A DNA stretch of 12,979 nt from positions 1 to 12,979 of IMG/VR virus record IMGVR_UViG_3300045988_117496, one strand, 5' to 3'. Origin of the DNA: a virus. This document shows positions 1-12,979 of this stretch, piece by piece. Both the position numbers and the translations under genes were made by a program. Within the stretch, counting starts at the first letter, position 1, and each line of letters starts with the position of its first letter. The notes beneath the pieces are model-generated. The model did not search any database. It saw only the letters and a list, made by a program, of their open reading frames with translations, and was not told the DNA's origin.

Positions 1-92
1 ATACTCAAGTCCGTGGTGGACGGACATTTGTCTTTCCCCCGCGGACATATGTGTTTGTCTCCGGCGGACATGATGTGCGCTATAGGCGAACA
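1..92. repeat. Left inverted terminal repeat (92 bp)
   Basis: Positions 1-92 equal the reverse complement of 12888-12979, except position 40 (C here, T in the reverse complement of 12940). It contains CGGACAT at 21-27, 42-48 and 65-71, plus a GTCCGT/ACGGAC palindrome at 9-25. Confidence 0.97.
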
Positions 93-95
93 CGC

Positions 96-122
96 AAAAA
101 GACCCCGGTCGAAACCGAGGTC
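96..122 (-). terminator. Rho-independent terminator ending the late operon
   Basis: The minus-strand RNA reads GACCUCGGU-UUCG-ACCGGGGUC followed by UUUUU. That is a 9-bp GC-rich stem (one G-U pair) with a UUCG loop. It lies 15 nt after the TAA stop of the last gene and 4 nt before the ITR. Confidence 0.85.
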
Positions 123-136
123 AAACATTTGTTCGA

Positions 137-1462
137 TTACTGAAAAAGTGGATCAAATACAAAATCCCCAAAATCTACGCACTCTATCTGGTTAATGTCA
201 TACTTTAAATAATTCCTTTTCGCTGTATTAATTGCTTGCATAATTAAATACACTTTTTTCTCTGAAATTTTAATAGAACCCTGCACCATTGTGAACAAGT
301 TTGCTTCTCCTGCTGTATCAGTTTCTTTACCTCTCAGAATCATACTACACGGGAATGTACAATCTGTTGCATAGAAATGAATTGCAGGGCTATCAATAGT
401 GCCTACTTCCAAGGGAGTACCGTCTAGTTTTAAGCCGGGTATATTTATCTCACTCAGTTTAAATTCCAGACATCTTACTTTTGCGGTTCCATTAAAAATG
501 GAATACCTAATTTTTGCGCCGCCTTTACCGGGGATACTTGAGGTCTTTGTAAAAGTCGTACCATATTCAATGCTGTTAATTGGTTTAAAGTAAAGTCCAT
601 CAAACGCCCCAATCACCATATTGAGAATATTCTTATGTCCTTGTTCGGAAGGATGCACGCCGTCATTTGAAAAAGATGATTCATACAGCATGCCCTGATA
701 TGCGGGTATAACACTAAATCCTAATTGAGCAGCTGAATACATCCAGATTTTAATTGCTTTAATTACACTGATGTAAGTTGTTGATGTATGAATCCCCTGC
801 TGATGACCTTCCCATGTCCATCCCATAGGACAAACAACCACGTTTTTACAGTTTTCAAAATTGCTTGCTATAGCACTTTGGAAATCAATCATGCCCTGAC
901 TGATGTCATTTTCAGCAGAGTTTCTGTCGTTGTAACTTCCACCCACAATTATTTTGACAACGTTTTTCTTTTCATTTGTTGTCATTGTGCCTGTTAATGT
1001 GTTTAACATATTTGTATATGTTTTAGTTCCGTCAGCTTTAAATCCATATCCACCAATGGCACTCAATTTAACAGAGTACCCATTTTTCTCAAGAGCATTT
1101 TTGAGCATATACGCCCATGAATATTCTTTATTAGCGATATTCTCTCCTGCACCATAGCTGTCTCCCAAAATAAGAACAGTAGGTTTATTAACTCTTGCCA
1201 ACGCTCCTTGTAATAATGCGTCTGAAATGATTTCCGAAAGTTCTCCGTTAGCTTTCATTTCATTCAAGATTTTTCGTACTTCTTTATCAATTTCAAGTTT
1301 AGCGAAATAATCTGTTACAAATTTCTTTAATTCTTCAAAGTCACCCTGTAATCCAGTAAACTTTCCTTGCATTTCAATCCATTCTTCTGTTAGGTTTTTC
1401 ACGGTTTCAATAATCCATGTTAAGTTCATTTCATGAAAATTCGTATATGGAAATTTAAACAT
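137..1462 (-). CDS. Tail appendage / receptor-binding protein with central SGNH (GDSL) esterase domain
   Basis: 441-aa ORF, the last late gene, with RBS GAGGGGGG-7 nt-ATG. The N-terminus FPYTNFHEMNLTWII resembles phage tail-fibre anchor motifs and is followed by a coiled-coil-like stretch. SGNH blocks are present: I LILGDSYGAG, II SAIGGYG, III GGSYND, V DGVHPSEQGH. The C-terminal ~145 aa has no recognisable motif. Confidence 0.75.
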   Translation of the reverse strand: MFKFPYTNFHEMNLTWIIETVKNLTEEWIEMQGKFTGLQGDFEELKKFVTDYFAKLEIDKEVRKILNEMKANGELSEIISDALLQGALARVNKPTVLILGDSYGAGENIANKEYSWAYMLKNALEKNGYSVKLSAIGGYGFKADGTKTYTNMLNTLTGTMTTNEKKNVVKIIVGGSYNDRNSAENDISQGMIDFQSAIASNFENCKNVVVCPMGWTWEGHQQGIHTSTTYISVIKAIKIWMYSAAQLGFSVIPAYQGMLYESSFSNDGVHPSEQGHKNILNMVIGAFDGLYFKPINSIEYGTTFTKTSSIPGKGGAKIRYSIFNGTAKVRCLEFKLSEINIPGLKLDGTPLEVGTIDSPAIHFYATDCTFPCSMILRGKETDTAGEANLFTMVQGSIKISEKKVYLIMQAINTAKRNYLKYDINQIECVDFGDFVFDPLFQ

Positions 1463-1476
1463 TTTCTTACCCCCCT

Positions 1477-2121
1477 CTAATATACTACTAGGAAAAACTC
1501 TTCTTTAAACATTTCAGTGATTTTACTCAACGCACTCATAGATTTTTCAAGCTTGAAATCCAACACCTCAAGTTCCGACATACCCGTAGACCTTGTTTCT
1601 TTTTCCGTTTCTGTCGTTTCATTTTTAGAATTTTTTGCGTTGTTGTTTGTTTCATCATAGCTTGCTTTTCCCCCATAAGTAATTGTTGTGCTTCCCCTAT
1701 CCACAAGTGACGTTGAGTTGAATCCTGCAACTTTTTCAGCTGTTGAATCAGAACCACTTGTCCCACTATTACTTTTCTGAGTTAAATTTTCTTTATCTTC
1801 CGTTGTAGATTTTCCTTTTTTGTCTCTTGTAATTGTTTCCGTTTTTTCTCCCTCTGTTGTAGAAATGGCAAGTTCTATATCATAGATAATTGAGAACAAT
1901 CGTTCATTTATAGAAGCCCACGAGTTTAGAGCTAAAGCCATTTCGGTTGGTGATGGTATTAAAACTTCCAACTCAGCGCATTTTAAAAGGACATAATTCT
2001 GAATATTATCCTTTCCAATATCATTTACCATATTGACCGGTAAATGACTTATGAAATTATCTTTCAGCAGATTTTCATTCCATGCTAGTAGCCCCCGTAA
2101 ATAAAGTTCTCCCGGCATCAT
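1477..2121 (-). CDS. Putative lower collar / head-tail adaptor protein (gp11-like by position)
   Basis: The ORF sits directly after the portal gene and before the appendage gene, the position of gp11 in phi29. It has a Ser/Thr/Lys/Glu-rich low-complexity centre. The track start (TTG at 2157) is unlikely; ATG-ATG at 2121/2118 follows GAAGGGGGCG. This start overlaps the portal 3' end by 47 nt. I recognise no diagnostic motif. Confidence 0.5.
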   Translation of the reverse strand: MMPGELYLRGLLAWNENLLKDNFISHLPVNMVNDIGKDNIQNYVLLKCAELEVLIPSPTEMALALNSWASINERLFSIIYDIELAISTTEGEKTETITRDKKGKSTTEDKENLTQKSNSGTSGSDSTAEKVAGFNSTSLVDRGSTTITYGGKASYDETNNNAKNSKNETTETEKETRSTGMSELEVLDFKLEKSMSALSKITEMFKEEFFLVVY

Positions 2122-2995
2122 TTTCGCCCCCTTCATTGTGACGTAATTTAACGTCAAGATTTAGATTAAACATTGTATTTGTTTGGTTAATTCCTTCTTT
2201 TAATGTTTCAAGCCATAATTCTGCTTTTGTGAAACACTCAATATTATTGCTGTTCACCTCATCTACAATCATACGTTCTTTCTTGTCACTTCTCACGTTT
2301 GGTATGCCAACTTCATTGCAAAACATTTCTTCCCAACGCCTCAATGTATCCTGTAATTCAGGAGCAATAAAATTCTTTTTCAAATCATTATTGAAAAAAT
2401 CTAACGGAATATTTTCGTTCCCCATCTTCAGTTTTTCATCATAGAAAACGCCAAGTTCACCTCTCATCACCTTATCAAGAATTTTCTTCATTGACTCAGC
2501 TTGACTTTTTCCTCTCACTGCGAAGAGAAATGAAAGTTTGCTGTTCATAATGTTCATTTCACACGTTTCCGCAGTCATAGCCATATTATCGGCATAGTAA
2601 TTTACAATATCAGAAATACCGCTGTAATCTGGCTGTAATCTGATAATGGAACATTGAGCACCAATTTTAGGCTCTAAAATTCCCGTTAATAAAGGATTCA
2701 CAATTACAGCGTGCGTGGGATTATAGTAGATATTATATCCTCTCAATTCGCAATGCTGACATATAACACCGAATTTATCTGTATTTACAACTGCCAAATA
2801 ACCATTTAAAAACAGCGAATATAAAAAATAATTTTTATCCCACGTTTCAGGCAATTCAAACTCAAATACAGACATAACTTTTTCAAGTAAATATTTTTTG
2901 AAAAACATAAACATCTGCGTGTTTTTCGTATGAAGAGTTGATGGACTGTAGGAAGAATTAAACAAGTTTATCATTTCATAACTGTATGGCATCAT
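2075..2995 (-). CDS. Portal (upper collar / connector) protein, phi29 gp10-like
   Basis: 306 aa, similar in size to phi29 gp10. SDKKERMIVDEVNSNN resembles the phi29 gp10 segment EKKERMVTDEVSSND, and LNLDVKLRH resembles LNVKVKFRY (recalled from memory). Confidence 0.85.
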   Translation of the reverse strand: MMPYSYEMINLFNSSYSPSTLHTKNTQMFMFFKKYLLEKVMSVFEFELPETWDKNYFLYSLFLNGYLAVVNTDKFGVICQHCELRGYNIYYNPTHAVIVNPLLTGILEPKIGAQCSIIRLQPDYSGISDIVNYYADNMAMTAETCEMNIMNSKLSFLFAVRGKSQAESMKKILDKVMRGELGVFYDEKLKMGNENIPLDFFNNDLKKNFIAPELQDTLRRWEEMFCNEVGIPNVRSDKKERMIVDEVNSNNIECFTKAELWLETLKEGINQTNTMFNLNLDVKLRHNEGGENDAGRTLFTGATSME

Positions 2996-2996
2996 A

Positions 2997-3641
2997 TCAT
3001 CCCCTTATAAATATTGAACTCCAATATTGCGCGTAAGTGTATCTCTCCGGCTGATTCAGACTTGCTGGTCTCAAATAATTATACATAAACGCATTAGTAA
3101 GCGTTTTCAGGTCATAGTTCCCAGTAGCCCACTCACGCCATGTCATATTGTAACTTGAAGTCGGATACCATTCCGGCTCAATACCCCTGTCAGCGTCACC
3201 AACACTCTCCTGATATTCAGCGAATAAAACAGCGCACTGTTTTCCACCGTCCCACCAGTCATCATGTTTTCCGTATAGAATATCAAGAACCGACAGTAAT
3301 TTTGTTCCCGGCGTCCACTGTACAAGTCCTCTGCCCGGGCCATCTGACGTTGTGCCACCGCCCACTTCAATGAGACCGGGATTCATGGTACTTTCCTTTT
3401 CCATGTTTCCTAACAACGCCATTCGAGCGGTTGGAGACCAACCTCTCTCCTTAAAATAATTGTTAATATTGGCAGCATTTTGTCGCATTTTGTCTCTTGT
3501 AAAATACCCGTTCACAGTATCGGTGACAAGTACATTCCATTCACCGGACGGTAAAGGAATCTCCCCACCGCTACCCCCAGAGCCACCAATGGAAAGACCT
3601 ATTAATAATGCTGAGTTGTCATTTCTGATGTTTCTATGCAT
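2997..3641 (-). CDS. Tail-associated peptidoglycan hydrolase (Phage_lysozyme2-type)
   Basis: 214 aa. ALLGNMEKESTMNP ... GRGLVQWTPG matches the GN-x3-ES ... G-x-G-x-x-QWT signature I associate with the phage tail lysozyme family. The N-terminus is a basic-hydrophobic segment followed by the GGSGGSGG linker. The ATG overlaps the last 8 nt of the tail-knob gene. Confidence 0.7.
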   Translation of the reverse strand: MHRNIRNDNSALLIGLSIGGSGGSGGEIPLPSGEWNVLVTDTVNGYFTRDKMRQNAANINNYFKERGWSPTARMALLGNMEKESTMNPGLIEVGGGTTSDGPGRGLVQWTPGTKLLSVLDILYGKHDDWWDGGKQCAVLFAEYQESVGDADRGIEPEWYPTSSYNMTWREWATGNYDLKTLTNAFMYNYLRPASLNQPERYTYAQYWSSIFIRG

Positions 3642-5010
3642 AATAAACGCCCCCTTCTAACAATGATTTAACTCTTGATATCTCATCTGAATAAGCCCCT
3701 GTAATATTCATGTCCCCATGTTCTACCAAATAATATCCGGTTCCCAGTGACTTAAAAGTACCACGTTTCATATACGGTCTTCCATTTTCATTGTTGTCCT
3801 CGTCAGTGACTGTTAGGAAATATTGAAAAAATGATATCCAACCGTCAGTTCCTATAGTTGAGCCGTTAGACCCTTTTGACGACACTGTAGGAAGAAACTC
3901 ATTTACAGCGTTCCCGATATATCCAACTCCTTTCATGAGTTGAACGGAAGCAATACTACCGAGTGCGGCTACAGATGATATTACACCCTCAAGAGGATTG
4001 TTTTTAGCTTCATTTATTTGAACAGGAACGCCATACATGCCAGAACTATAGCCAAGTAGTGCATTATTATTAGTAAACGAAATGTCGTATACACCTGTTC
4101 TGGGGTCTATTCGGAAATCGACATTAATCGGAGAGTTAATATTTATTTTATTGGTGTCAATTTGCATCACGCCAAACAGTCTCGATGCTATTTCCAACCT
4201 GTGATATGCACCATGATTTAGATAATCACCTCTAGAAGCCTGAGGATGACTTGATAATGTCACACTCCGTTGTAGTTTGTATGCTAAAAGTGTATTCAAT
4301 TTTGTACACACCGCAGGAATTTTCCAATATCCTAACGGAAGTTCTGACACTTCTGTTCCGCCGGGTATACCGAAAGGCATCCATATACAATTTGACACGT
4401 ATTGGAACGGGTTCATAACAATTTTAACAATAGAATCTTTTATTCCCGATTCTTTGATATCAGCCCAATCTATGTCACCGAATGCTTTCTGGCAGAACGT
4501 TGTGAAATCTGTTACTTGAAATTGATAATATTCTAATGCACCCTCTTGACCTACTACTGTCAGTATAATGAACCCTGTTATCCAACCTGCGCTTGCACCT
4601 TCTGGCAGTACACTAATTTCTTGAGCCTTTTTTGTGTAACCGGATTTTGCGGGGTAAAAATTATCTATTACAGAGCCATCAAAAGTGGCACTGCTTCTTA
4701 AAATGTAAAATTCTTCTTCTATGATTTCGCTTTTGAAGCTAGCTAAAACATCACACTCTAATGAACAAATCCATAGACCCTCTTCAAACGTCCAGTCTTT
4801 TACAAAATAATATCTGTTAAACTCTTCAATATAACAGTAATTCAAATTAGTTGGATTCCCAGAAGCATCGTTATATTGTACACTCAGCGTTGGACTTGAA
4901 ATAGAAGAGGGGCTACGTAAAGCCCCTGTTCTAGTCACAACAGCAGAAGAATTTGGAGGAATCCATGTAGAATTTTTACGTTTTCCCACATTGTAAAAAT
5001 GAACTCTCAT
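3634..5010 (-). CDS. Tail knob / distal tail tube protein, phi29 gp9-like
   Basis: 458 aa, directly after the capsid gene as in phi29. The N-terminal YCYIEEFNRYYFVKDWTFEEGLWICSLECDVLASF parallels phi29 gp9 YIMFQNADYGNKWFYAFVTELEF...VHFEIDVLQTW (recalled from memory). Confidence 0.65.
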   Translation of the reverse strand: MRVHFYNVGKRKNSTWIPPNSSAVVTRTGALRSPSSISSPTLSVQYNDASGNPTNLNYCYIEEFNRYYFVKDWTFEEGLWICSLECDVLASFKSEIIEEEFYILRSSATFDGSVIDNFYPAKSGYTKKAQEISVLPEGASAGWITGFIILTVVGQEGALEYYQFQVTDFTTFCQKAFGDIDWADIKESGIKDSIVKIVMNPFQYVSNCIWMPFGIPGGTEVSELPLGYWKIPAVCTKLNTLLAYKLQRSVTLSSHPQASRGDYLNHGAYHRLEIASRLFGVMQIDTNKININSPINVDFRIDPRTGVYDISFTNNNALLGYSSGMYGVPVQINEAKNNPLEGVISSVAALGSIASVQLMKGVGYIGNAVNEFLPTVSSKGSNGSTIGTDGWISFFQYFLTVTDEDNNENGRPYMKRGTFKSLGTGYYLVEHGDMNITGAYSDEISRVKSLLEGGVYYA

Positions 5011-5025
5011 GCTGTAACCACCTTA

Positions 5026-6222
5026 TTAATCTAATAAGAACACAACTCCATTTTCGGTGAAGTCGTTGTAGTATCTGTCATTGAAATGCCAGAAAATGTT
5101 ACTGTATCCGCCTCTCGCATTAAACGGTGACGGTGCAGACCATTCACCGTAAGTTGTAATGCCAACTGCTTCCTCGTCGAATAGCACACCGAAAATGTTA
5201 GAAGTAGCTGTGCCTTCAGTGTCGGAAACAACGCTTCCTGTTGCGTTCATGTATGACGCTTTTACATTAATACCATCAGGGCTGTCAATATTCTGCCAGA
5301 AACCCACTTTCTCGTGATCTGCCATTTTCAAGTAGCTGTCGTTAAAGATGGATGTCATAACACTAGCGTCAATGTTATTTAGCTCTTCAGAATACAGATA
5401 CAGCTTCTGTTTGTTGTACGGTGTATGCCTAGAAATTTCTTTTCCAGTAACATTAATATGGAACTTTTGTGTTCTTTCAGTCATCCAATCCGACACTGTT
5501 TTGATGTAGCCTGTCGCCCACTTCATGAACGGAACAAAGTTTTCTGGCTGTTTTACCGTGTCAGCTGTAAGAGTGGTTCCGGCGACATCGTTATATTTTG
5601 TCACAAGATGAATAACATTTGCAGTGTCGCCTTTCACTTTACCACCAATAAAGTTGGCGAGTGTCATTCTTGCTGTTGCTTCATGTGCCTGTTCAATTAA
5701 ATCAGACGCGTTTGTCATAATCATAGTGACAAACCTCTGAAACTCCTGTTCATTCTGTAACGCAACGTTTAACTGGTCTCTAAATAGTGTAACCTGTCTC
5801 TGATATACATTCTGGCCATAAAAATTTGTTTGAAGTACTTTCGGAATTGCAACTACTTGATCATCCACACTCGTTCCGTCTGTTAAGTCGTATCGGTCAT
5901 CATTATCCCAATCAGAATCCGCAATATTGAGTTTTCTTACATGGTTTCCAAACCTCATGTTATCTTGATATAAACCCTTAAACTTTCTTGAATAGGGTCT
6001 GATAGAAAAAATAGTTCTGCTGAGAACCTGAGAAATTGCGTTTAACAGTGGGTCAATTCCTAACCCTAGTGCTGTAGTGGCAACTGATGTAAAATCACTT
6101 GTTGCAATCGCACTAACTGTGTTTTTCCCTGTTGCCTGATTTACAATTTCATTCAGAATGGCGGCTGAATTAAAATTCGCTACGTTAGGTGTGCCCGGTG
6201 TTAATTTAATAGCTGTCCCCAT
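5026..6222 (-). CDS. Major capsid protein
   Basis: 398 aa with a strong RBS (AAAGGAGTGATTTT-ATG), immediately downstream of the scaffold-like gene. ISQVLSRTIFSIRPYSRKFKGL resembles phi29 gp8 SLVDRIGLVVIR...PLKKFKKG (recalled from memory). Confidence 0.8.
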   Translation of the reverse strand: MGTAIKLTPGTPNVANFNSAAILNEIVNQATGKNTVSAIATSDFTSVATTALGLGIDPLLNAISQVLSRTIFSIRPYSRKFKGLYQDNMRFGNHVRKLNIADSDWDNDDRYDLTDGTSVDDQVVAIPKVLQTNFYGQNVYQRQVTLFRDQLNVALQNEQEFQRFVTMIMTNASDLIEQAHEATARMTLANFIGGKVKGDTANVIHLVTKYNDVAGTTLTADTVKQPENFVPFMKWATGYIKTVSDWMTERTQKFHINVTGKEISRHTPYNKQKLYLYSEELNNIDASVMTSIFNDSYLKMADHEKVGFWQNIDSPDGINVKASYMNATGSVVSDTEGTATSNIFGVLFDEEAVGITTYGEWSAPSPFNARGGYSNIFWHFNDRYYNDFTENGVVFLLD

Positions 6223-6226
6223 AAAA

Positions 6227-6553
6227 TCACTCCTTTACTGGTGGATTAATAATTGAAGCTAACATATCTTCTGTTGTCGGCGGTTCCGGAATCTGGGAGT
6301 TACTCAGGTTTCCAACCTGAATCAATTTGGTAATCTCATCTAATCGGTTGTCCAGAACACCCATACGCTGATTAAAAACATCCTGTGCCGGAACCGGCGC
6401 TGATACTGGTGCTGATGCCGGTGCTGATGCCGGTGTTGGTGTCTGAATCGGAGCCGGAGCCGGAGCCGGTGCTGATACCGTACCCATGATTTTGATAATG
6501 TCCTGTTTGCTGAATCCTGCCCCTGCAAGGGCAATGATGTCTTCGATTTTCAT
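6227..6553 (-). CDS. Putative scaffolding protein with Pro/Ala-rich linker
   Basis: 108 aa, directly upstream of the capsid gene, the position and size of phi29 gp7. It has helical N- and C-terminal segments joined by APAPAPAPIQTPTPASAPASAPVSAPVPA. Its ATG overlaps the upstream stop codon (ATGA). Confidence 0.5.
   Translation of the reverse strand: MKIEDIIALAGAGFSKQDIIKIMGTVSAPAPAPAPIQTPTPASAPASAPVSAPVPAQDVFNQRMGVLDNRLDEITKLIQVGNLSNSQIPEPPTTEDMLASIINPPVKE
6396..6479. repeat. GC-rich tandem repeats (12-mers and hexamers) encoding the Pro/Ala linker
   Basis: The plus strand reads ggcgctgatact, ggtgctgatgcc x2, ggtgttggtgtc, (ggagcc)x3, ggtgctgatacc. Confidence 0.9.
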
Positions 6554-6861
6554 GTATTATCACTCCTTTTTGTTAAATATTTTTTATTACAGAAACCTGC
6601 GTAAATCTTTCCGCTGTCTGAGTATTCACATAGATACCATTCCATGGTGATATCTGTAAACCCGTAACAGAAGATTGTACGTCCCTTTGGCATTTCCACG
6701 ATTATATCTGCGTTTGTATCTGGCTTATCACGCAACAGCAGAGGGGAACTCTTTGTATTTATTTTATATTCGCCATATACGTCGCGATCTGGGATAATGT
6801 CAATCATTCCGTACTGTTCTTCAATATTCGGGTCTAGTAAAATTTTTGCACCTAACGGCAT
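6550..6861 (-). CDS. Stand-alone SH3b-like (SH3_3) cell-wall-binding domain protein
   Basis: 103 aa. LLLRDKPDTNADIIVEMPKGRTIFCYGFTDITMEWYLCEYSDSGKIYAGFCNKKYL fits the bacterial SH3 pattern (L-x-V/L-R-x-x-P, then K-G, then W, then G-Y/F-V-x-x-x-Y-L). No catalytic domain is present. RBS is AAAGGAGTGATACG-ATG. Confidence 0.6.
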   Translation of the reverse strand: MPLGAKILLDPNIEEQYGMIDIIPDRDVYGEYKINTKSSPLLLRDKPDTNADIIVEMPKGRTIFCYGFTDITMEWYLCEYSDSGKIYAGFCNKKYLTKRSDNT

Positions 6862-6865
6862 CGTA

Positions 6866-7060
6866 TCACTCCTTTGCGTCCAGTTTGTCTGCTAGTTTCT
6901 GAATTGCCATTGTATTATTGTTTAAAACTTCTGTGAGGTTATGTATTTCTTCTTTATGGTTTTCAGTTTCCTTGTACCATAAATAAAAGGTCACTGCGAG
7001 GCACGCCACCGGAACTCCCAGAGAACTGAATAACTGACTTATTGCCTGAATCCATTCCAT
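6866..7060 (-). CDS. Holin, BhlA/UviB-like (single N-terminal TM plus charged coiled-coil tail)
   Basis: 64 aa from the ATG at 7060, with RBS AAGGGAG-7 nt-ATG. The TM segment is LFSSLGVPVACLAVTFYLWY, followed by KETENHKEE and a helical tail, the architecture of BhlA-family holins. The track's GTG start at 7150 lies in the leader with a badly spaced Shine-Dalgarno sequence. Confidence 0.7.
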   Translation of the reverse strand: MEWIQAISQLFSSLGVPVACLAVTFYLWYKETENHKEEIHNLTEVLNNNTMAIQKLADKLDAKE

Positions 7061-7086
7061 ATTGTTACTCCCTTCTTTTGAATTGA

Positions 7087-7156
7087 GGGAAAGTGTTGAG
7101 AGCCAACCAAACTCATGTACACGGGTTCCGCCCGTTGGTTTTTGTACCACTCCCCC
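7087..7156 (-). promoter_or_regulatory. Predicted structured element in the ~100-nt P3 leader
   Basis: In the minus-strand RNA, GGGGGAGUG (7156-7148) can pair with CACUUUCCC (7095-7087), giving 9 bp including 2 G-U pairs. This encloses the GC hairpin ACGGG-CGGAA-CCCGU (7135-7121) and possible AACCAA/UUGGUU and GUAC/GUAC pairings. Fold is by eye only. Confidence 0.3.
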
Positions 7157-7165
7157 TACAATTGC

Positions 7166-7194
7166 ATCATATCACATCTTGAAATAGTTGTCAA
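7166..7194 (-). promoter_or_regulatory. Promoter P3 (late operon), sigma-A/sigma-70 type with extended -10
   Basis: The minus strand reads TTGACA (7194-7189), a 17-nt spacer ending TGA, then TATGAT (7171-7166). The sequence upstream is AT-rich. The TGA of the extended -10 is also the ATPase stop codon. Confidence 0.75.
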
Positions 7195-8227
7195 GTAAAT
7201 ATTTTGATTCTATATCAGAAAAACTGACTAGTCCATCTAAGTACATCCCCCAGACCCATATAAACTTATGCCGGAAAGCTGTCAGGTCTCTTGTTGATGT
7301 AGAATACGTAATCTGAGGTGAACCTTGTAGGTGCTGTGTAATATACAGTTTTTCCTTGCTTTTGTGTGTGTATATGGTTATTTCTCCAACTGTCACAATG
7401 GGGACGTACTCATTTATGGGTTCGGATTTAATGTTCGAATAGTCCTCAGCGTAGAAATCATTCTGAATTGACATCTTGTAAAAATCACTATTTTTACCAA
7501 CCATTCTGTATACAGCTGTCTCAGATTTTGCCTGTGAAATTGGAGAGTTGGCTAAATTGATAAGAATAATACCCCTATCGGGCAGATAACTAAATTCCTG
7601 CCCTGTTTTATGCATATCGGTAACTTTGCGGATTAAACCCAGTTTCGCAAAAATATCACAGTTCGCATTTTCACTGTTAGATGCGCATATGAGTTGTAGA
7701 GGTTTATCTCCCATAAGTTCTCGATTTCTGTTTATGGTTTCATAACCATTTAAGAGAGCGATTGTAGCGTTTTTTAACTGTGGTTCTGTCTTTTCTGGGA
7801 TGAACTCGTCATAAAACATCAATTCAACGTCAGATGCCCCGAAACCTCGTAAATTAGATATTGTACCAAGTGCGGCGGAGTAGCCTAATGGTTTTCCTGT
7901 GTTCGTGTATTTTTTCGTTTTTTCGTCAAAACTTGTGTCATAAAAACCAGAATACAGTTTATTAATTGGTGATGGCGTAATACGTCTGTTACAGTCTGTG
8001 TTGTATTGTTTAAACGGATTGAATTGCGGTGTACGTATCATATCTATTTGAGTTTGACGGGTTCGAAGGTAGATGAATTTTTTATTATTTTCTACAGCGT
8101 GTTTCAAAATACCATACGTTTTTCCCGTTCCTCTACCGCCCCATATAAATATGAAAGGGCATCCTGTTTCCAAGATACCCTTTATATTCACATAACCATT
8201 ACTGTCATACAATTCAGGCTTTTTCAT
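7172..8227 (-). CDS. DNA encapsidation (packaging) ATPase, phi29 gp16-like
   Basis: 351 aa. Walker A is WGGRGTGKTY and Walker B is ELMFYDEFI. The segments FIYLRTR, LLNGYETINRNRE and LICASNS parallel phi29 gp16 GARGIGKSY, FIYVRRY, IVFDEFI, LNLMDTVFRNRE and CICLSNA (recalled from memory). Confidence 0.9.
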   Translation of the reverse strand: MKKPELYDSNGYVNIKGILETGCPFIFIWGGRGTGKTYGILKHAVENNKKFIYLRTRQTQIDMIRTPQFNPFKQYNTDCNRRITPSPINKLYSGFYDTSFDEKTKKYTNTGKPLGYSAALGTISNLRGFGASDVELMFYDEFIPEKTEPQLKNATIALLNGYETINRNRELMGDKPLQLICASNSENANCDIFAKLGLIRKVTDMHKTGQEFSYLPDRGIILINLANSPISQAKSETAVYRMVGKNSDFYKMSIQNDFYAEDYSNIKSEPINEYVPIVTVGEITIYTHKSKEKLYITQHLQGSPQITYSTSTRDLTAFRHKFIWVWGMYLDGLVSFSDIESKYLLDNYFKM

Positions 8228-8580
8228 TTCACATATCCCGCAACAAGAAAGTTTCTTCCACGCTGAGATTTTTTGAAAGATACAGATACTTTTCGGAAGT
8301 CCTCACCACATTTTTCTGCCATTGTGATAATACGCTCAAAAGCCTGAATGAATGAGGTTGAGGTTGTCACGTAAACGTTGTGTGTTTCCGCTTCCTCGAT
8401 TGACAGAGTTTTCACTATTTCACCCTTTGAGTTTTCATCTTCCACAATAGCGTAGTGTACGAACTCTACAGTTGTTCCGGCAGTGTCGGAAAGACGGATT
8501 CTGCTCTCATCTTCGAACATTGCAAACATTAACTCCATTGTATACTCGTTTTCCTGAATGTTTGTTTTAATAATTTTCAT
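8224..8580 (-). CDS. Hypothetical small acidic protein, translationally coupled to the packaging ATPase (possible phage SSB)
   Basis: 118 aa with RBS AAAGGAG-8 nt-ATG. Its stop overlaps the ATPase start (ATGA). The C-terminal pattern TTSTSFIQAF...KKSQRGRNF reminds me of small phage OB-fold SSBs. That is a recollection, not a verified match. Confidence 0.45.
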   Translation of the reverse strand: MKIIKTNIQENEYTMELMFAMFEDESRIRLSDTAGTTVEFVHYAIVEDENSKGEIVKTLSIEEAETHNVYVTTSTSFIQAFERIITMAEKCGEDFRKVSVSFKKSQRGRNFLVAGYVK

Positions 8581-8657
8581 GTTATTTTCTCCTTTTTTCT
8601 TTTTATGCTGTTTTACCCACAGCTGGGAGTTGTTTCAGATTGCGGCATGTTTGGTTC

Positions 8658-8879
8658 TTACTCTACTTTTCCGTAGTGTACAAATTCGGCTTCTGTCATG
8701 GATGCTTTTACAACTTCGGTATCCATGGAAACTTTCACAGCCTTTACTCCTGTTTCAGCTTCATAAGATTTTTTAATCTTTGTAGCTGTCACGTTTGCGC
8801 CGTAGTAGGTTTTTTCTACAGACTGCCCGTTTCCGTCTGTAATCTTTGCTGTTACTTTTTCAATGCTTCTTGTAATCAT
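8658..8879 (-). CDS. Hypothetical 73-aa protein, first gene downstream of promoter P2
   Basis: Strong RBS AAAAGGAG-10 nt-ATG about 40 nt downstream of P2. The protein is Lys/Glu/Thr/Val-rich with no motif I recognise. By position it could be a dsDNA- or ssDNA-binding replication accessory protein. Confidence 0.6.
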   Translation of the reverse strand: MITRSIEKVTAKITDGNGQSVEKTYYGANVTATKIKKSYEAETGVKAVKVSMDTEVVKASMTEAEFVHYGKVE

Positions 8880-8896
8880 GTTTTTTCAACTCCTTT
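8878..8896 (-). repeat. 19-nt translation-initiation-region repeat, copy 1
   Basis: Plus-strand atgttttttcaactccttt is identical to 11761-11779. On the minus strand it reads AAAGGAGTTGAAAAAACAT, followed by the rest of the start codon. Confidence 0.9.
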
Positions 8897-8926
8897 TTTA
8901 TTTTGTCTTATTTTTGTTACAAGTAT

Positions 8927-8955
8927 ATAATAGCATATGTGAGCGTGTATGTCAA
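8927..8955 (-). promoter_or_regulatory. Promoter P2, sigma-A/sigma-70 type with extended -10
   Basis: The minus strand reads TTGACA (8955-8950), a 17-nt spacer ending TGC, then TATTAT (8932-8927). An A-tract UP-like element (TTTTAAAAAATACCAAAGAAAAGG) lies upstream. The -35 hexamer contains the polymerase TGA stop codon. Confidence 0.8.
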
Positions 8956-11042
8956 GCCTTTTCTTTGGTATTTTTTAAAAAATCATGCCACAAATCAACG
9001 CTATTGAGAACATTTAAATATTCCATCGTGAGACCAACGGTGTATTCAGAGGGGCGTATAACCACGTTTCTGGTGATGTATACGCTTTTATCCGGATTAT
9101 CTGCGTCGGGGCTGTAATACCCATAATCTGAATCATTATAAACAGATTCCGTGCCACCCGCTTCCCGAAACGTAGTTCCGATTTTCAAAGCTTCCAAACC
9201 GCCCATTCTCTGCAATTCTTCTGCACCTTTTTTCTTTCCCACGCCCGCTATCGTGATTTCAAGTTTGCCGTTTTTTTCTTGAGCATATTTTTTTGCACCT
9301 AAGGTTATAAATCTGTCTGATGTGCCCTCATACTCGTATACGCCTAAATAATGTTCCACGCCTTTTGGGTCTGTGGCATGACCGCCATTTTCTACAGAAT
9401 CCGCTTTTAATCGGATATTTAATTCATCAAATTTTTCTTTGATTTCAGGATATCGTTCCGTTATCAATATTTTGCACGAATCTGTGTCACAATAAACAAA
9501 ATCTTCACCCGCAATATTTACGGCAAGCTTGAGTCTTTGTCTGGCATGAGCAGTTACCCAACAGCCCCATGCATACAGCATGAACGCTCTTTTGTTGTAT
9601 TTTGCTAGCTTTTCCCCTGTATCCCCGTCTTCAACTGAGAATGGTTTTTCTGTGTTACTGTAGATGATATCCGGCTTAACAGGATTCTGTGCGGACATAC
9701 CGTATAGTGCGTTTATCAGCTCTTTTGCCAAAGCGTATTCAATCTCTTTTCCCTCTACACCTTTTAAAGACGTTTTATCTGTGAATAATCGTTTTACCAA
9801 TTCTCTTAAAGACTCCGGGAGATACCCGTACCCTGCCGTGTAAAAATCAGTGAATTCAACTTCATCCCATACGTATTCCCTTTTCACAATACTGAAATCA
9901 ATGTCATTCAGTGTGCACGAATATTCATCCGCTGAAAGTAAACGACCGTTGTCCCAAACTGATTCTTTGCTTATGCAATAACCCTTATCTTTTGTCAAAT
10001 AAGGGGCGCCGTAATAAACATCTTTTTGTCTGATGTTCCGGAAATGAAACCGCCCCACATAAGCTTTGTGAAATTTTGTCCACCTGTCAATGTCCTCTAT
10101 ACCACAATTTCCCTGTCGCACAAATTTTGTCATTGGGAATTCACAGTTGAGCATAACGTCTGGGTAAGAGCTTGCCCTGTCGAATGACGCAACGTTGCTA
10201 AGTATTTTTCCAACGTGATATCTGTTTGCGTGAGTGTCACCGCCCCTGAATTCTTCTCTGAGAAGTATATATAAACTCGTGTCGCACATCATGCTGTGTA
10301 GTTTTTTATAATTGTATTGCTTCATAGCTAGCCTTGCTTCTCTTCTAACGTAGCCAGTTGAGGTTAACGGCAGAGTGTATAGTGTATCATTATTATCCAC
10401 CAATCGTTTATGCATTGCCTGTAATAACCCAATTACATCATTGCACCCGTACTCAATTTCTTTGAGTGTTAATTCCGTCCATGGGTAACGCCGTTTATCA
10501 TAATCAAAATCTTTCAACTTCTGATTCTGTACCCCGCTATCACTCAGAAACTTGTCAAGACTTTTGTGTGTTTGCATATACGAGCACCTAAACTCCAAAT
10601 TCCCTTGCATATGATTTCCTGCCCTGATTCTGAGTATTTTCCGAGGTTTAAGCGAGAACACCTCTTCTGGCTTTATTTCTATGTGTGAGCGTAAAAACTG
10701 AAATTCATATGATAGGTTATGCACAAACACCATTGTGATAAGATGCTCATCCTCAATTCCTATGAACAGTTCTTCAAGTTCGTTCCAATCTCTTCCATAG
10801 ACACATATTATTTCATTACCGTCAAGCAATACTGCAAACTGCCATAAATACATGATGCTCTGTTCAATTTCTGAAAGTCGTGTAGTTTCGATATCGAAAG
10901 CGCATATGCAATTTCTGTATGACTGTTTTGCAAAGCGTTGTTTTCCTCTCATGTTAGGTGTTCTATATATCTGTTGTATTCTACGTATCAATTCCTCTCT
11001 TTGCTTTTTGCCACTCCCTGTACTGATTGAGTAATTCATCAC
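8952..11042 (-). CDS. Family B DNA polymerase, protein-primed type (phi29 gp2-like)
   Basis: Exo I AFDIETT; Exo II HNLSYEFQF; (S/T)Lx2h KSLDKF; Exo III YGCNDV. Motif A is FDRASSYPDVM, motif B KELINALYG, T-x2-A/G-R is TAHAR, motif C VYCDTDS, and KxY is GAKKYAQ. The A-to-B (~150 aa) and B-to-C (~80 aa) spacings leave room for TPR1- and TPR2-like insertions. The start is ambiguous: TTG 11063, GTG 11042 or ATG 11039. Confidence 0.95.
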   Translation of the reverse strand: MMNYSISTGSGKKQREELIRRIQQIYRTPNMRGKQRFAKQSYRNCICAFDIETTRLSEIEQSIMYLWQFAVLLDGNEIICVYGRDWNELEELFIGIEDEHLITMVFVHNLSYEFQFLRSHIEIKPEEVFSLKPRKILRIRAGNHMQGNLEFRCSYMQTHKSLDKFLSDSGVQNQKLKDFDYDKRRYPWTELTLKEIEYGCNDVIGLLQAMHKRLVDNNDTLYTLPLTSTGYVRREARLAMKQYNYKKLHSMMCDTSLYILLREEFRGGDTHANRYHVGKILSNVASFDRASSYPDVMLNCEFPMTKFVRQGNCGIEDIDRWTKFHKAYVGRFHFRNIRQKDVYYGAPYLTKDKGYCISKESVWDNGRLLSADEYSCTLNDIDFSIVKREYVWDEVEFTDFYTAGYGYLPESLRELVKRLFTDKTSLKGVEGKEIEYALAKELINALYGMSAQNPVKPDIIYSNTEKPFSVEDGDTGEKLAKYNKRAFMLYAWGCWVTAHARQRLKLAVNIAGEDFVYCDTDSCKILITERYPEIKEKFDELNIRLKADSVENGGHATDPKGVEHYLGVYEYEGTSDRFITLGAKKYAQEKNGKLEITIAGVGKKKGAEELQRMGGLEALKIGTTFREAGGTESVYNDSDYGYYSPDADNPDKSVYITRNVVIRPSEYTVGLTMEYLNVLNSVDLWHDFLKNTKEKA

Positions 11043-11451
11043 CAGATTTTTCACCTCTATCAATAAACAACTCTAGCGCCTTTGTACTGTCGTATACTCG
11101 TCCCAATGAATAATCGCGAACAGATTCCATGAACTCGCCAAACTCATTTAATTCTTTATAAGTCTTAAATTTAATCCCCAACTTTTCAAGTTTTGCCATT
11201 TTTCGTCTGGCAATTCTCCTTTGCCCTGATACACTGTATAAATCAGATTTCTCAGCTTGTTCTAGCGCTGTCATTGCCCCCCCTCTCTGACGAGCGGTTT
11301 TTATCTGGCTTTCAGGTGGCAGCTGTTGTAGCATGTATTGTATATTACTCTTTGCACCCATGCCGAAATTTTTATTTTGTGCTAAGACTTTAAGCTTTCT
11401 TATAACTTTAGTACGGCGTTTTGCATAATCTGTCATCATGCCACTGCTCAC
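10981..11451 (-). CDS. Candidate terminal (priming) protein
   Basis: 156-aa basic, predicted-helical ORF immediately upstream of the polymerase gene and overlapping it. This matches the TP-pol synteny of phi29 (gp3-gp2) and PRD1. The N-terminal basic stretch is YAKRRTKVIRKLKVL. I see no sequence similarity to known terminal proteins, so the call rests on position and composition only. Confidence 0.45.
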   Translation of the reverse strand: MSSGMMTDYAKRRTKVIRKLKVLAQNKNFGMGAKSNIQYMLQQLPPESQIKTARQRGGAMTALEQAEKSDLYSVSGQRRIARRKMAKLEKLGIKFKTYKELNEFGEFMESVRDYSLGRVYDSTKALELFIDRGEKSGDELLNQYREWQKAKRGIDT

Positions 11452-11761
11452 TCTCCCTTTCCTCTCGTTCTACATCGTGAATATGTTTCACGTGAAACAT
11501 TATCGCAGAACGATTCAGTATTTGTGCTTTGCTCAAGTTGTTATGTTTTGCCAACTTCTTTACTTCTCTAAAAGTTTTATCTGTGAGGTACACACTTGTG
11601 TCATATTTTGGTGTAACCCGACTGGACGCGAATTGAAATCCCGAACCACCGAACTCAAGAACTGAATACACAGCATGCTCTAAATATTCGCTCACTGTTG
11701 TCCCGTATTCTTCTGCCCAGTTGTATATTCTCATATCTAATCGTACTGATAATTTTCTCAA
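11408..11761 (-). CDS. Tandem ribbon-helix-helix DNA-binding protein (putative transcription regulator)
   Basis: There are two RHH-like units: KLSVRLDMRIYNWAEEYGTTVSEYLEHAVYSVLE and TSVYLTDKTFREVKKLAKHNNLSKAQILNRSAIMF. Each reads as a beta strand plus two helices. The TTG start (TTGA overlap with the upstream stop, AAAGGAG 11 nt upstream) is needed to keep the first beta strand. Confidence 0.6.
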   Translation of the reverse strand: MRKLSVRLDMRIYNWAEEYGTTVSEYLEHAVYSVLEFGGSGFQFASSRVTPKYDTSVYLTDKTFREVKKLAKHNNLSKAQILNRSAIMFHVKHIHDVEREERESEQWHDDRLCKTPY

Positions 11762-11925
11762 TGTTTTTTCAACTCCTTTCTTTGCTCTCGTTTTCTTCTG
11801 AGTTTTTCTTTTCTCCTTTTCTCTCTTCCCATTTCATCTGTCGTACCGAGGATGTACCCTGACACAAACATCATGATTAAAGCTATAGACACGTAAATTA
11901 TATCGCTTGTGGTTGTTGCTATCAT
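11758..11925 (-). CDS. Small membrane protein with polybasic C-terminal tail (absent from the supplied ORF track)
   Basis: Hand translation gives MIATTTSDIIYVSIALIMMFVSGYILGTTDEMGREKRRKEKLRRKREQRKELKKH (55 aa). RBS is GGAGG-7 nt-ATG. There is one TM helix followed by a Lys/Arg-rich tail. The ORF fills an otherwise empty gap exactly, and its stop overlaps the next gene's start. Confidence 0.65.
   Translation of the reverse strand: MIATTTSDIIYVSIALIMMFVSGYILGTTDEMGREKRRKEKLRRKREQRKELKKH
11761..11779 (-). repeat. 19-nt translation-initiation-region repeat, copy 2
   Basis: Identical to 8878-8896. It spans the RBS and start of the RHH gene and the last codons of the 55-aa membrane-protein gene. 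Confidence 0.9.
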
Positions 11926-11929
11926 TTCA

Positions 11930-12502
11930 TCACCTCCAATAAATATTTCTACGCTCTGCGTCTGTAATTATATTGATATCACCATATTTCACATATGTCC
12001 CGTGAGTATGCGAACAGTCTCCCGAGAAATACACCAAATATGATTCCAATAAGACAAAATCATGAATACTCATTTCAATGCCATTTATAAAAACAGTACC
12101 CCCAAAATATCCTTTTTTAATCTTCTGTAACAGCTTTTTCAAATCATGGTTAAAATCAATAATTAAACTGTGAATACCTGTGTATTTGATTTCAGCACCG
12201 ATACCGTAAAACTCGATACTGGTCTCTCCTAAAATAGCGTCACACCCTTCAAATGCTACGAGGTCATTAATTGTGACCAACACGTCATTGGTTTCGGTGA
12301 TTTTTTTAAGATCTTCTAACTCTTTAACTGATTCAATAGGTATTATGTGCGTATCTTCAATTCTTGACGCACCGTTATATATCGGCGCAATGTAGCGTAT
12401 AGACCCGTCTGAAAACCTGTGAAAACCATACTTGCCATTTTTGTTCATGTACTCATCAAACTCACGAGTGTGTCTTTTAATTAATTCGATTGTATCTGAC
12501 AT
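11930..12502 (-). CDS. Hypothetical early protein (190 aa)
   Basis: Good RBS AGAAAGGAG-6 nt-ATG; second gene downstream of P1. I recognise no motif. Confidence 0.7.
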   Translation of the reverse strand: MSDTIELIKRHTREFDEYMNKNGKYGFHRFSDGSIRYIAPIYNGASRIEDTHIIPIESVKELEDLKKITETNDVLVTINDLVAFEGCDAILGETSIEFYGIGAEIKYTGIHSLIIDFNHDLKKLLQKIKKGYFGGTVFINGIEMSIHDFVLLESYLVYFSGDCSHTHGTYVKYGDINIITDAERRNIYWR

Positions 12503-12556
12503 TTTATGCTCCTTTCTCCCCGTTGTGCCGGTAGGTCGGCAGTTTATTTTAATATT

Positions 12557-12781
12557 TTATAACCCAATCTGTATCATCTGATAAAAGATACTTGCCATAA
12601 TTTTTCTCTTGTTTCTGTCGTATATAAACAACACATGTGCATCATCATCAAAATACAGTTTAACGGAATCATAAAAGAAGCAAACGTTGTTTATGAAAAT
12701 ACTTGAGCATTTTCCATTGTTTACCATTCTAAAACTCTTGTTGCATTCTCTAATCTTTTCGATAATATCTTTTTTTGTCAT
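12557..12781 (-). CDS. Hypothetical early protein (74 aa)
   Basis: The ATG at 12781 is preceded by AAAAGAGGAG-8 nt. The track's longer start at 12838 lies upstream of the predicted P1 transcription start. I recognise no motif. Confidence 0.7.
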   Translation of the reverse strand: MTKKDIIEKIRECNKSFRMVNNGKCSSIFINNVCFFYDSVKLYFDDDAHVLFIYDRNKRKIMASIFYQMIQIGL

Positions 12782-12828
12782 TTTATTTTCTCCTCTTTTA
12801 CTTGTTGCTATCTCCTTGCTATGATTAT

Positions 12829-12857
12829 ATAATATCACATTTATACCACGTTGTCAA
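12829..12857 (-). promoter_or_regulatory. Promoter P1 (early), sigma-A/sigma-70 type with extended -10
   Basis: The minus strand reads TTGACA (12857-12852), a 17-nt spacer ending TGA, then TATTAT (12834-12829), with an overlapping TATAAT 5 nt downstream. An AT-rich element (TTTTATAAAAACTA) lies upstream. The promoter sits about 30 nt inside the right ITR. Confidence 0.8.
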
Positions 12858-12887
12858 TAGTTTTTATAAAATTATACCGCAATTATT

Positions 12888-12979
12888 TGTTCGCCTATAG
12901 CGCACATCATGTCCGCCGGAGACAAACACATATGTCCGCAGGGGAAAGACAAATGTCCGTCCACCACGGACTTGAGTAT
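12888..12979. repeat. Right inverted terminal repeat (92 bp)
   Basis: Reverse complement of 1-92 with a single mismatch at 12940. Identity stops at 12887 on this side and at 93 on the left. Confidence 0.97.

Follow-up and report, generated by a model that had tools for sequence, protein, structure and literature searches.

The window analysed here, a stretch of 12,979 nucleotides (nt) that forms positions 1 to 12,979 of IMG/VR virus record IMGVR_UViG_3300045988_117496, is a complete linear phage genome of the phi29-like mini-podovirus type, and its minus strand carries all of its genes of any size. An open reading frame (ORF) of 156 amino acids (aa), located at 10981..11451 on that strand and directly upstream of the gene for a protein-primed family B DNA polymerase (PolB), probably encodes the terminal protein (TP) of the phage, the primer for replication of its genome; we put the probability of this reading at about three in four. 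An earlier note on this DNA had proposed the same ORF as a miniature TP. That identification now draws support from the type of genome, from an association with PolB that held in 103 of 103 loci, from the elimination of other early genes and from a column of the family alignment reserved for hydroxyl residues, while no sequence, profile or fold similarity to proven TPs was detected.

The genome is of a kind that calls for such a protein. Inverted terminal repeats stand at the two ends of the window (1..92 and 12888..12979) as a pair of 92-nt arms that are 99% complementary, with a single mismatch at window position 40 (C vs T). The PolB gene (8952..11042, minus strand; 696 aa) matches Pfam DNA_pol_B_2 (3.8e-13) and phrog_1907 (7.7e-59), and the sole match of its product in the PDB is the phi29 DNA polymerase, aligned across phi29 residues 145-476, a span which we take to include the TPR1 and TPR2 insertions. 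A DNA-packaging ATPase of the phi29 gp16 type is encoded at 7172..8227 on the minus strand (Pfam Podovirus_Gp16, 5.8e-13; phrog_2150, 1.4e-33), and in phi29 the substrate of gp16 is TP-capped DNA. Among close relatives of the window, gene products match Pfam Phi29_MCP, Phage_connector and Phage_lysozyme2. A linear genome with terminal repeats, a protein-primed PolB partner of the phi29 type and a gp16-type ATPase therefore needs a TP, and the repeats would be the replication origins at which a TP-polymerase complex would initiate. While a megablast search of the whole window against GenBank phages gave no match, the nearest records by polymerase similarity are unannotated human-faecal contigs (40-47% identity), and by this placement the window is a phi29-like mini-podovirus from the gut.

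PolB, at 696 aa, is longer than the phi29 enzyme (575 aa), and its extra sequence raises the alternative that there is no separate TP, the polymerase being primer-independent or equipped with a self-priming domain and the 156-aa ORF having an unrelated role. A TP domain fused to the N-terminus of the polymerase was, however, ruled out, as the stretch before the Exo I motif (FDIETT) has only about 46 residues and is too short to hold such a domain. The terminal repeats and the gp16-type ATPase also make up a phi29-type arrangement, and the best PDB and Pfam matches of PolB are protein-primed polymerases. We thus regard replication by this polymerase in the absence of a separate TP as very unlikely.

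The 156-aa ORF is a genuine gene under strong purifying selection, since the ratio of non-synonymous to synonymous substitution rates (dN/dS) is 0.05-0.10, at dS 0.5-1.3, across its non-overlapping codons 16-136. A chance reading frame would have nothing in its favour besides a GTG start, which is unusual, and overlaps with the genes on either side; it is refuted by the conservation, with thousands of homologs and a confidently predicted structure adding to the low dN/dS, and may be dismissed for practical purposes. The ORF thus exists with the extent and strand that had been described for it. Its product has 156 aa if translated from GTG 11451 and 152 aa if translated from ATG 11439, and public gene calls for it give 156, 155, 152 or 151 aa. 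An in-frame TAG lies seven codons upstream of the GTG and the 156-aa ORF is therefore not extendable, which also ruled out an upstream extension that would regain the N-terminal segment missing from this protein.

At its 3' end the candidate TP gene overlaps the 5' end of the PolB gene out of frame by 62 nt (10981..11042, minus strand). Among five related genomes, most differences between the stop of the ORF and Met 10952 are at third codon positions when read in the polymerase frame (for example ACA/ACC/ACT and CCT/CCA/CCC), and polymerase translation therefore starts upstream of that stop. GTG 11042 is the only start codon kept in all five genomes, the alternative start ATG 11039 being present in two of the five, and from this start the DNA alignment gives the 62 nt. 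Judged from that alignment, the overlap of the two genes is real, and its size falls within the 60-80 nt anticipated for it.

The position of the gene relative to PolB is a constant feature of its family. In a set of 103 IMG/VR loci, which are independent viral contigs fetched with the two subfamily profiles described below, the family gene was co-oriented with the polymerase gene and directly upstream of it in 103/103. Measured from the base at which the PolB alignment begins, its stop lay at -58 to +105 nt, so that there is no space for another gene between the two. A gene adjoining that of the polymerase in the same orientation is what is found in the TP class, the proven TP genes of phi29, Cp-1, PRD1 and Bam35 all standing directly before their polymerase genes, with spacings that range between a gap of 22 nt and an overlap of 17 nt; the general rule on which the candidacy was first based was thus borne out in these four phages.

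Five early ORFs lie upstream of PolB, and only the 156-aa ORF was matched in more distant relatives (tblastn, 9e-12 in L006 and 3e-5 in L004), the 93-, 190-, 55- and 117-aa ORFs having no match there. The 190-aa ORF (11930-12502, minus strand) is the early protein that the earlier note had named as the possible rival TP, and it proved a poor candidate. Its identity among close relatives is 44-66%, against 92-93% for their polymerases, it is doubled as tandem paralogs in L015 (261-872 and 841-1455), and it was not found in L004-L006. As a fast-evolving protein that is duplicated in one relative and unconserved past close relatives, it was rejected as the TP; in these comparisons it behaves as a host-interaction gene rather than as a protein that has to fit the polymerase, and looks like one of the host-takeover or anti-defence type.

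The candidate TP belongs to a large family of proteins encoded before the polymerase. Close homologs, of 86-98% identity, occur on more than 100 contigs of about 13 kilobases (kb), and contigs of this size carry over 140 clusters of nearly identical proteins. At 90% identity, the two biggest clusters comprise 476 and 351 proteins, each of them annotated as hypothetical. A profile search with hmmsearch, in a space of 1.84 billion representative proteins, returned 1685 clusters (50% identity) at E<=1e-3 and 403 at 1e-10. Every relative inspected has an ORF of about 200 aa upstream of its polymerase, as in the gut contigs MT837693 (213 aa), MT835998 (218 aa) and MT836263 (199 aa), in Amedibacillus phage AD70P2 (204 aa) and Vibrio phage K58 (199 aa), and in Salmonella phage astrithr (gp02, 197 aa) and Acinetobacter phage Phanie (gp02, 202 aa), and these ORFs align with the window protein. 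Two subfamilies could be distinguished: A, with the window and other contigs, which were taken as gut Firmicutes-type phages, and B, of the Phanie/astrithr type. Comparison of A with B by hhalign gave a probability of 99.4-99.5% and E of about 1e-21. The proteins of astrithr, Phanie, AD70P2 and the gut contigs are thus homologous to that of the window and, like it, encoded directly upstream of PolB, and the astrithr/Phanie-type relatives share with it a basic first helix, a (T/S)-S-(T/S)-V-x-G motif and a hydroxyl-only column. They differ from it in their overlap with PolB, which amounts to at most a few confirmed bases or is replaced by a short gap, in contrast to the 62 nt of the window.

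Searches of Pfam, PHROGs and NCBIfam with the ORF and five homologs gave no useful match, the weak, scattered ones differing between members, and Foldseek matches in BFVD were only to uncharacterized podovirus proteins of 187-216 aa, which are likely members of the same family. One representative of the family, P0508 (337 aa), shows profile matches in two stretches, which might reflect an internal duplication or a fusion. Genome maps of Astrid, DU_PP_III and Phanie in a 2024 review carry the label 'terminal protein' (PMC11476376), which rests on HMM searches and AlphaFold models and is given without details or experiments (PMC11476376). For Astrithrvirus, Phanie or Amedibacillus phages, our reading of the literature yielded no experimental study of the TP. 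To these labels, our comparison of sequences adds the placing of the ORF in a large family, a count of its synteny with PolB, the recognition of a core-only lineage and the nomination of a putative priming residue, with a Tyr/Ser exchange inside one family.

The window protein has an isoelectric point of 9.96, with 32 Lys and Arg against 19 Asp and Glu, and its charge is unevenly distributed, the net values being +7 for residues 1-30, +16 for residues 1-97 and -3 for residues 98-156. Its AlphaFold2 model, computed with a 26-sequence alignment, is all-helical, with a mean predicted local distance difference test score (pLDDT) of 86 and a predicted template modelling score of 0.67, and contains seven helices (residues 8-24, 31-42, 53-68, 74-90, 98-114, 122-130 and 137-151). 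The expectation of a basic, helical protein with a polybasic N-terminus was thus confirmed. The basic first helix, residues 8-24 (DYAKRRTKVIRKLKVLA; 11380..11430, minus strand; pLDDT about 94), corresponds in the alignments to the top-conserved motif of the family, (R/K)xE(Y/V)SRLxxxANKRLxRLE.

At 156 aa the protein is short for its family, whose median length is 203 aa among the best 150 profile matches. Full-length members run to about 200 aa and carry an extension at either terminus; in the alignments the window protein has neither, being without the first ~40 residues of the family (rich in Lys and Arg, with a Tyr-Thr-Pro motif after this) and without the last ~35-45 residues of typical members. 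At least two other clusters at less than 50% identity share the short form (P0469, 154 aa; P0474, 162 aa), and it is, on this comparison, a stable core-only lineage and not a truncation artefact. Cut back at its N- and C-terminus in comparison with typical members, the 156-aa form may be near the minimal priming module. The TP lengths in GenBank records, 266 aa for phi29, 230 for Cp-1, 259 for PRD1 and 245 for Bam35, agree with the 230-270 aa quoted for known TPs. The description 'miniature' is therefore apt in relation to these and to the ~200 aa of the family, and overstated in relation to the proposed 167-aa TP of Staphylococcus phage Andhra (gp7), which is only slightly longer.

It had been thought that the priming residue could not be assigned from sequence; comparison across the family, however, allowed one to be nominated. 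The motif Tyr120-Asp121-Ser122-Thr123 (11083..11094, minus strand) contains the proposed priming residue, Ser122 (codon 11086-11088), which lies 34 residues from the C-terminus. In the AlphaFold2 model, Ser122 is at the junction of a loop (115-121) with helix 122-130, and its counterpart in a model of the Phanie homolog, Tyr142, comes after a loop predicted with very low confidence (residues 134-142). Without exception, the subfamily A sequences compared have Ser122, both the 23/23 divergent ones and the 22/22 unique, independent ones from IMG/VR. In both hhalign runs it is paired with a column of subfamily B (n=125) that holds Tyr in 97 members, Ser in 23 and Thr in one, the remaining four rows being other or gapped and at least two of them truncated or misaligned sequences. 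In an independent B set, the column is Tyr in 72 and Ser in three (75/75 hydroxyl). Ser-bearing members of subfamily B read Phe-Asp-Ser-Thr or Tyr-Asp-Ser-Asp at this position, which is the motif of subfamily A.

No other column carries a hydroxyl residue in 100% of subfamily A and ~97-100% of B. Phe never occurs at the Ser122 column, whereas other Tyr-rich columns of the family are swapped for Phe, Leu, Trp or Ile. A rough neighbour-joining tree, unreliable at such divergence, places about 16 Tyr/Ser switches at the column, and the sequences clearly point to multiple switches. A column that admits Tyr, Ser and Thr and not Phe is what would be expected of a priming nucleophile rather than of a packing residue or a helix cap. 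A conserved Ser/Thr/Tyr column, as the TP class possesses, is thus present in the family, and we infer that Ser122 itself would do the priming.

The surroundings of Ser122 also resemble those of the priming residue of the phi29 TP, Ser232 (PMC3351185). The context is Phe-Asp-Ser-Glu at Ser232 and Tyr-Asp-Ser-Thr at Ser122, and Ser232 too is 34 residues from the C-terminus. Eight other TPs of the phi29 family read Phe-Asp-Ser-Glu, Trp-Asp-Ser-Glu, Tyr-Ala-Ser-Asp, Tyr-Gln-Ser-Gly or Tyr-Asp-Ser-Asp, the last being the form at the Ser232 position in the phi29-like TPs of MG-B1 and DK2. In the tectiviral TPs, residue 190 of PRD1 and residue 194 of Bam35 are Tyr in the database records, as in most of subfamily B, and we take these to be the priming positions. 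Given that the ORF encodes the TP, we favour Ser122, with some reserve, as the likeliest priming residue.

A second conserved hydroxyl bears on this choice. Ser73 (11233..11235, minus strand) belongs to the (T/S)-S-(T/S)-V-x-G motif, the second-best conserved of the family, and is placed at a loop-helix junction; its column is Ser or Thr in 23/23 members of subfamily A and in 112/125 of B. The alignment of A to B at Ser122 has low posterior confidence, and MAFFT set the gap differently, both of which weaken the case for Ser122. The ORF might accordingly encode the TP and be primed elsewhere, either at Ser73 or at a tyrosine such as Tyr120 or Tyr72. The hydroxyl at Ser73, however, seems dispensable, as 10 of the 125 subfamily B members have Leu in this column and others have Arg or Ile, and Ser73 is therefore the weaker candidate, or may serve as a helix N-cap. 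Tyr120 is likewise replaced by Phe, Cys or Arg in three members of subfamily A, in contrast to the near-universal hydroxyl at Ser122 and its fit to the phi29-family motif. Priming at a residue other than Ser122 is thus unlikely, though it keeps some weight.

Several results weigh against the reading as a TP. The likeness of the Ser122 and Ser232 motifs extends over three residues and could be a coincidence, Tyr-Asp-Ser being expected by chance, on our own estimate, in roughly 5% of proteins of this size. No homology to any experimentally proven TP was detectable by sequence, profile or fold. The window protein and five homologs had no Pfam match at E<=1, including Phi-29_GP3, and the family profiles run against PDB sequences missed the phi29 TP chain (2EX3) even at E<=10; the matches that they did give there (Teb2 and ATP synthase subunit b) were weak and were set aside as chance. 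The profile comparison with TP families that had been suggested as a check came out negative, with hhalign probabilities below 5% against phi29 gp3, Cp-1 orf4, Andhra gp7, PRD1 P8 and Bam35 ORF4 taken singly, and of 2.6% at best against a nine-member phi29-TP profile. Homology to that profile was also rejected on its scores, which at 19-23 exceeded those of column shuffles but were equalled by a reversed-sequence control (19-22), and which therefore reflect a helical, charged composition. The best alignment to phi29 gp3, which is non-significant and serves as a lead only, places Ser122 on Ser232 and EYSRLR on SYSRLR of phi29. Foldseek searches of the PDB gave a best E of 1.4 for the window model and of 1.6 for the model of the Phanie homolog (pLDDT 68), with 2EX3 listed for neither, a negative that is weak in that elongated, hinged helical proteins are hard targets.

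The well-studied TPs are too divergent from each other for homology detection. HHpred links phi29 gp3 only to Nf (PMC11476376). Compared with phi29 gp3 and its relatives in the Salasmaviridae, the window protein likewise has its gene directly upstream of a protein-primed PolB and shows a basic N-terminus, a helical structure, an acidic C-terminal part and a candidate Ser in an aromatic-Asp-Ser motif at the same distance from the C-terminus, but it is shorter by far (156 aa, against 266 aa in phi29 gp3) and has no significant sequence, profile or fold similarity. Andhra gp7 (167 aa) was proposed as a TP by elimination and an AlphaFold model (PMC9710869), and was detected in virions by mass spectrometry (PMC9710869). 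It too is a small helical protein of a phi29-like podovirus, but its homology to the window protein is undetectable (hhalign probability <1%), and in Andhra the packaging ATPase gene stands between the gp7 and polymerase genes, whereas in the window the candidate TP gene overlaps PolB. PRD1 P8 (259 aa) and Bam35 ORF4 (245 aa) are encoded directly upstream of PolB or overlapping it, as is the window protein; they differ from it in showing no profile similarity, and tectiviruses are placed in a different virus realm.

The same negatives, and a basic, all-helical make-up that also suits DNA binding, are consistent with another role for the ORF, that of a replication accessory coevolving with PolB (an origin-binding protein or a binder of double-stranded DNA like phi29 p6, or a cofactor or organizer of the polymerase), in which case the true TP would be another small ORF, such as the 190-, 118- or 73-aa protein. 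The 118-aa ORF downstream of PolB is itself partly conserved, with one distant match (L004, 1.8e-8). Against this, genomes of the astrithr type have only about 15 genes, and of the early proteins encoded beside PolB in them only the family member is both large enough and still unassigned. The 190-aa ORF, as mentioned above, diverges far faster than PolB and is duplicated or absent in relatives, and a Tyr/Ser/Thr column that excludes Phe would not be expected of a plain DNA-binding protein. With the unbroken synteny with PolB, this leads us to consider an accessory role improbable, and a TP remains the reading that we prefer.

As a TP, the protein would be functionally an ordinary one. It would be made from an early operon, its translation coupled to that of PolB via the 62-nt overlap, and it would pair with the polymerase as a heterodimer. 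Binding of DNA, of the polymerase or of both would fall to the basic N-terminal two-thirds (net +16), and the slightly acidic C-terminal third (net -3) would bear the priming loop. At each terminal repeat, the polymerase would join the first nucleotide to the hydroxyl of Ser122; this nucleotide would probably be deoxyadenosine monophosphate (dAMP), since A is the first base at both genomic 5' ends. Once a few nucleotides had been added, the polymerase would release the TP, which would stay covalently on both 5' ends, and the gp16-type ATPase would then package the capped DNA.

Protein-primed replication is well understood for few TPs, namely those of phi29, Nf, GA-1, Cp-1, PRD1, Bam35 and adenovirus. 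The phi29-like podoviruses of 10-14 kb are plentiful in gut and wastewater samples, and to our knowledge their TP has never been experimentally defined. As a priming residue has been nominated, the assignment proposed here is directly testable with one point mutant. If correct, it would give a name to a large set of proteins now called hypothetical, and the window protein would be the smallest TP known. More tentatively, the family might be one TP family, with no detectable sequence relationship to the TPs of phi29, PRD1 or Cp-1, in which the priming residue has repeatedly changed between Tyr and Ser, and rarely to Thr, with the 156 aa of the window as the smallest natural priming module, a core able to prime in the absence of the extensions that its relatives carry. 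Polymerases of the same lineage would then be able to start from the hydroxyl of Tyr as well as from that of Ser, and the family would offer a natural Tyr/Ser series for the study of priming-residue specificity, together with very compact TP-polymerase pairs on which orthogonal replication could be built. Were the TP reading wrong, mini-podoviruses would have to prime replication otherwise, which would be more surprising.

Some observations concern the ends of the window. Both ends begin ATACTCAAG, while many related contigs begin AATACTCAAG, GGAATACTCAAG or GTGGAATACTCAAG, as found on comparing the first 15 nt of loci L016, L019, L022, L026-L028, L030-L032 and L034. As so many related contigs start differently, one or more terminal bases are probably missing from the window. 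With AA at the 5' end, a sliding-back start like that of phi29 would be possible, and the longer GTGGA prefix may be an assembly artefact. As to packaging, an Rfam scan of the window found no packaging RNA (pRNA) and no other RNA family at gathering thresholds; a gp16-type ATPase accompanied by no detected pRNA would mean either that the pRNA is too divergent or that mini-podoviruses do without one.

A promoter-like site (TTGACA, 17 nt, TG-TATTAT; 12829..12857, minus strand), an 11/12 pattern match from a consensus scan, lies just inside the right repeat and would drive the early operon with the candidate TP and PolB. A second site with identical hexamers, also 11/12, lies just after the PolB gene (8927-8955, minus strand) and precedes two small ORFs (73 and 118 aa) and the ATPase gene. 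The two sites suggest that transcription is organized in two units; in total, promoter-like sites are no more numerous in the region than expected from shuffling. Upstream of the candidate TP gene, and overlapping it by 44 nt at its own 3' end, is the gene for a 117-aa protein (11408..11761, minus strand), 87-94% identical in close relatives, with weak resemblance to ribbon-helix-helix or Arc-like repressors (phrog_582, 9e-4; Pfam RHH_1, 0.058). It occupies the slot of the phi29 transcriptional regulator gene 4, which also overlaps the start of the TP gene.

The small ORFs after PolB (118 aa, 8224-8580; 73 aa, 8658-8879; both minus strand) are 92-99% identical in close relatives and had no family matches, the 118-aa ORF being matched in MT835998 (1.8e-8); they are candidates for single- or double-stranded DNA-binding proteins of the replication module. 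Directly before the major capsid gene, an ORF of 108 aa (6227-6553, minus strand) contains a low-complexity stretch rich in Ala, Pro, Ser and Thr (APAPAPAPIQTPTPASAPASAPVSAPVPA), and its product may be a scaffolding or head-decoration protein. The last gene (137-1462, minus strand; 441 aa) has a faint-to-weak Lipase_GDSL_2 match in relatives and may encode an esterase that serves as a tail or receptor-binding protein; gp6 of Andhra, the anchor of its receptor-binding protein, is likewise annotated as a putative esterase or lipase.

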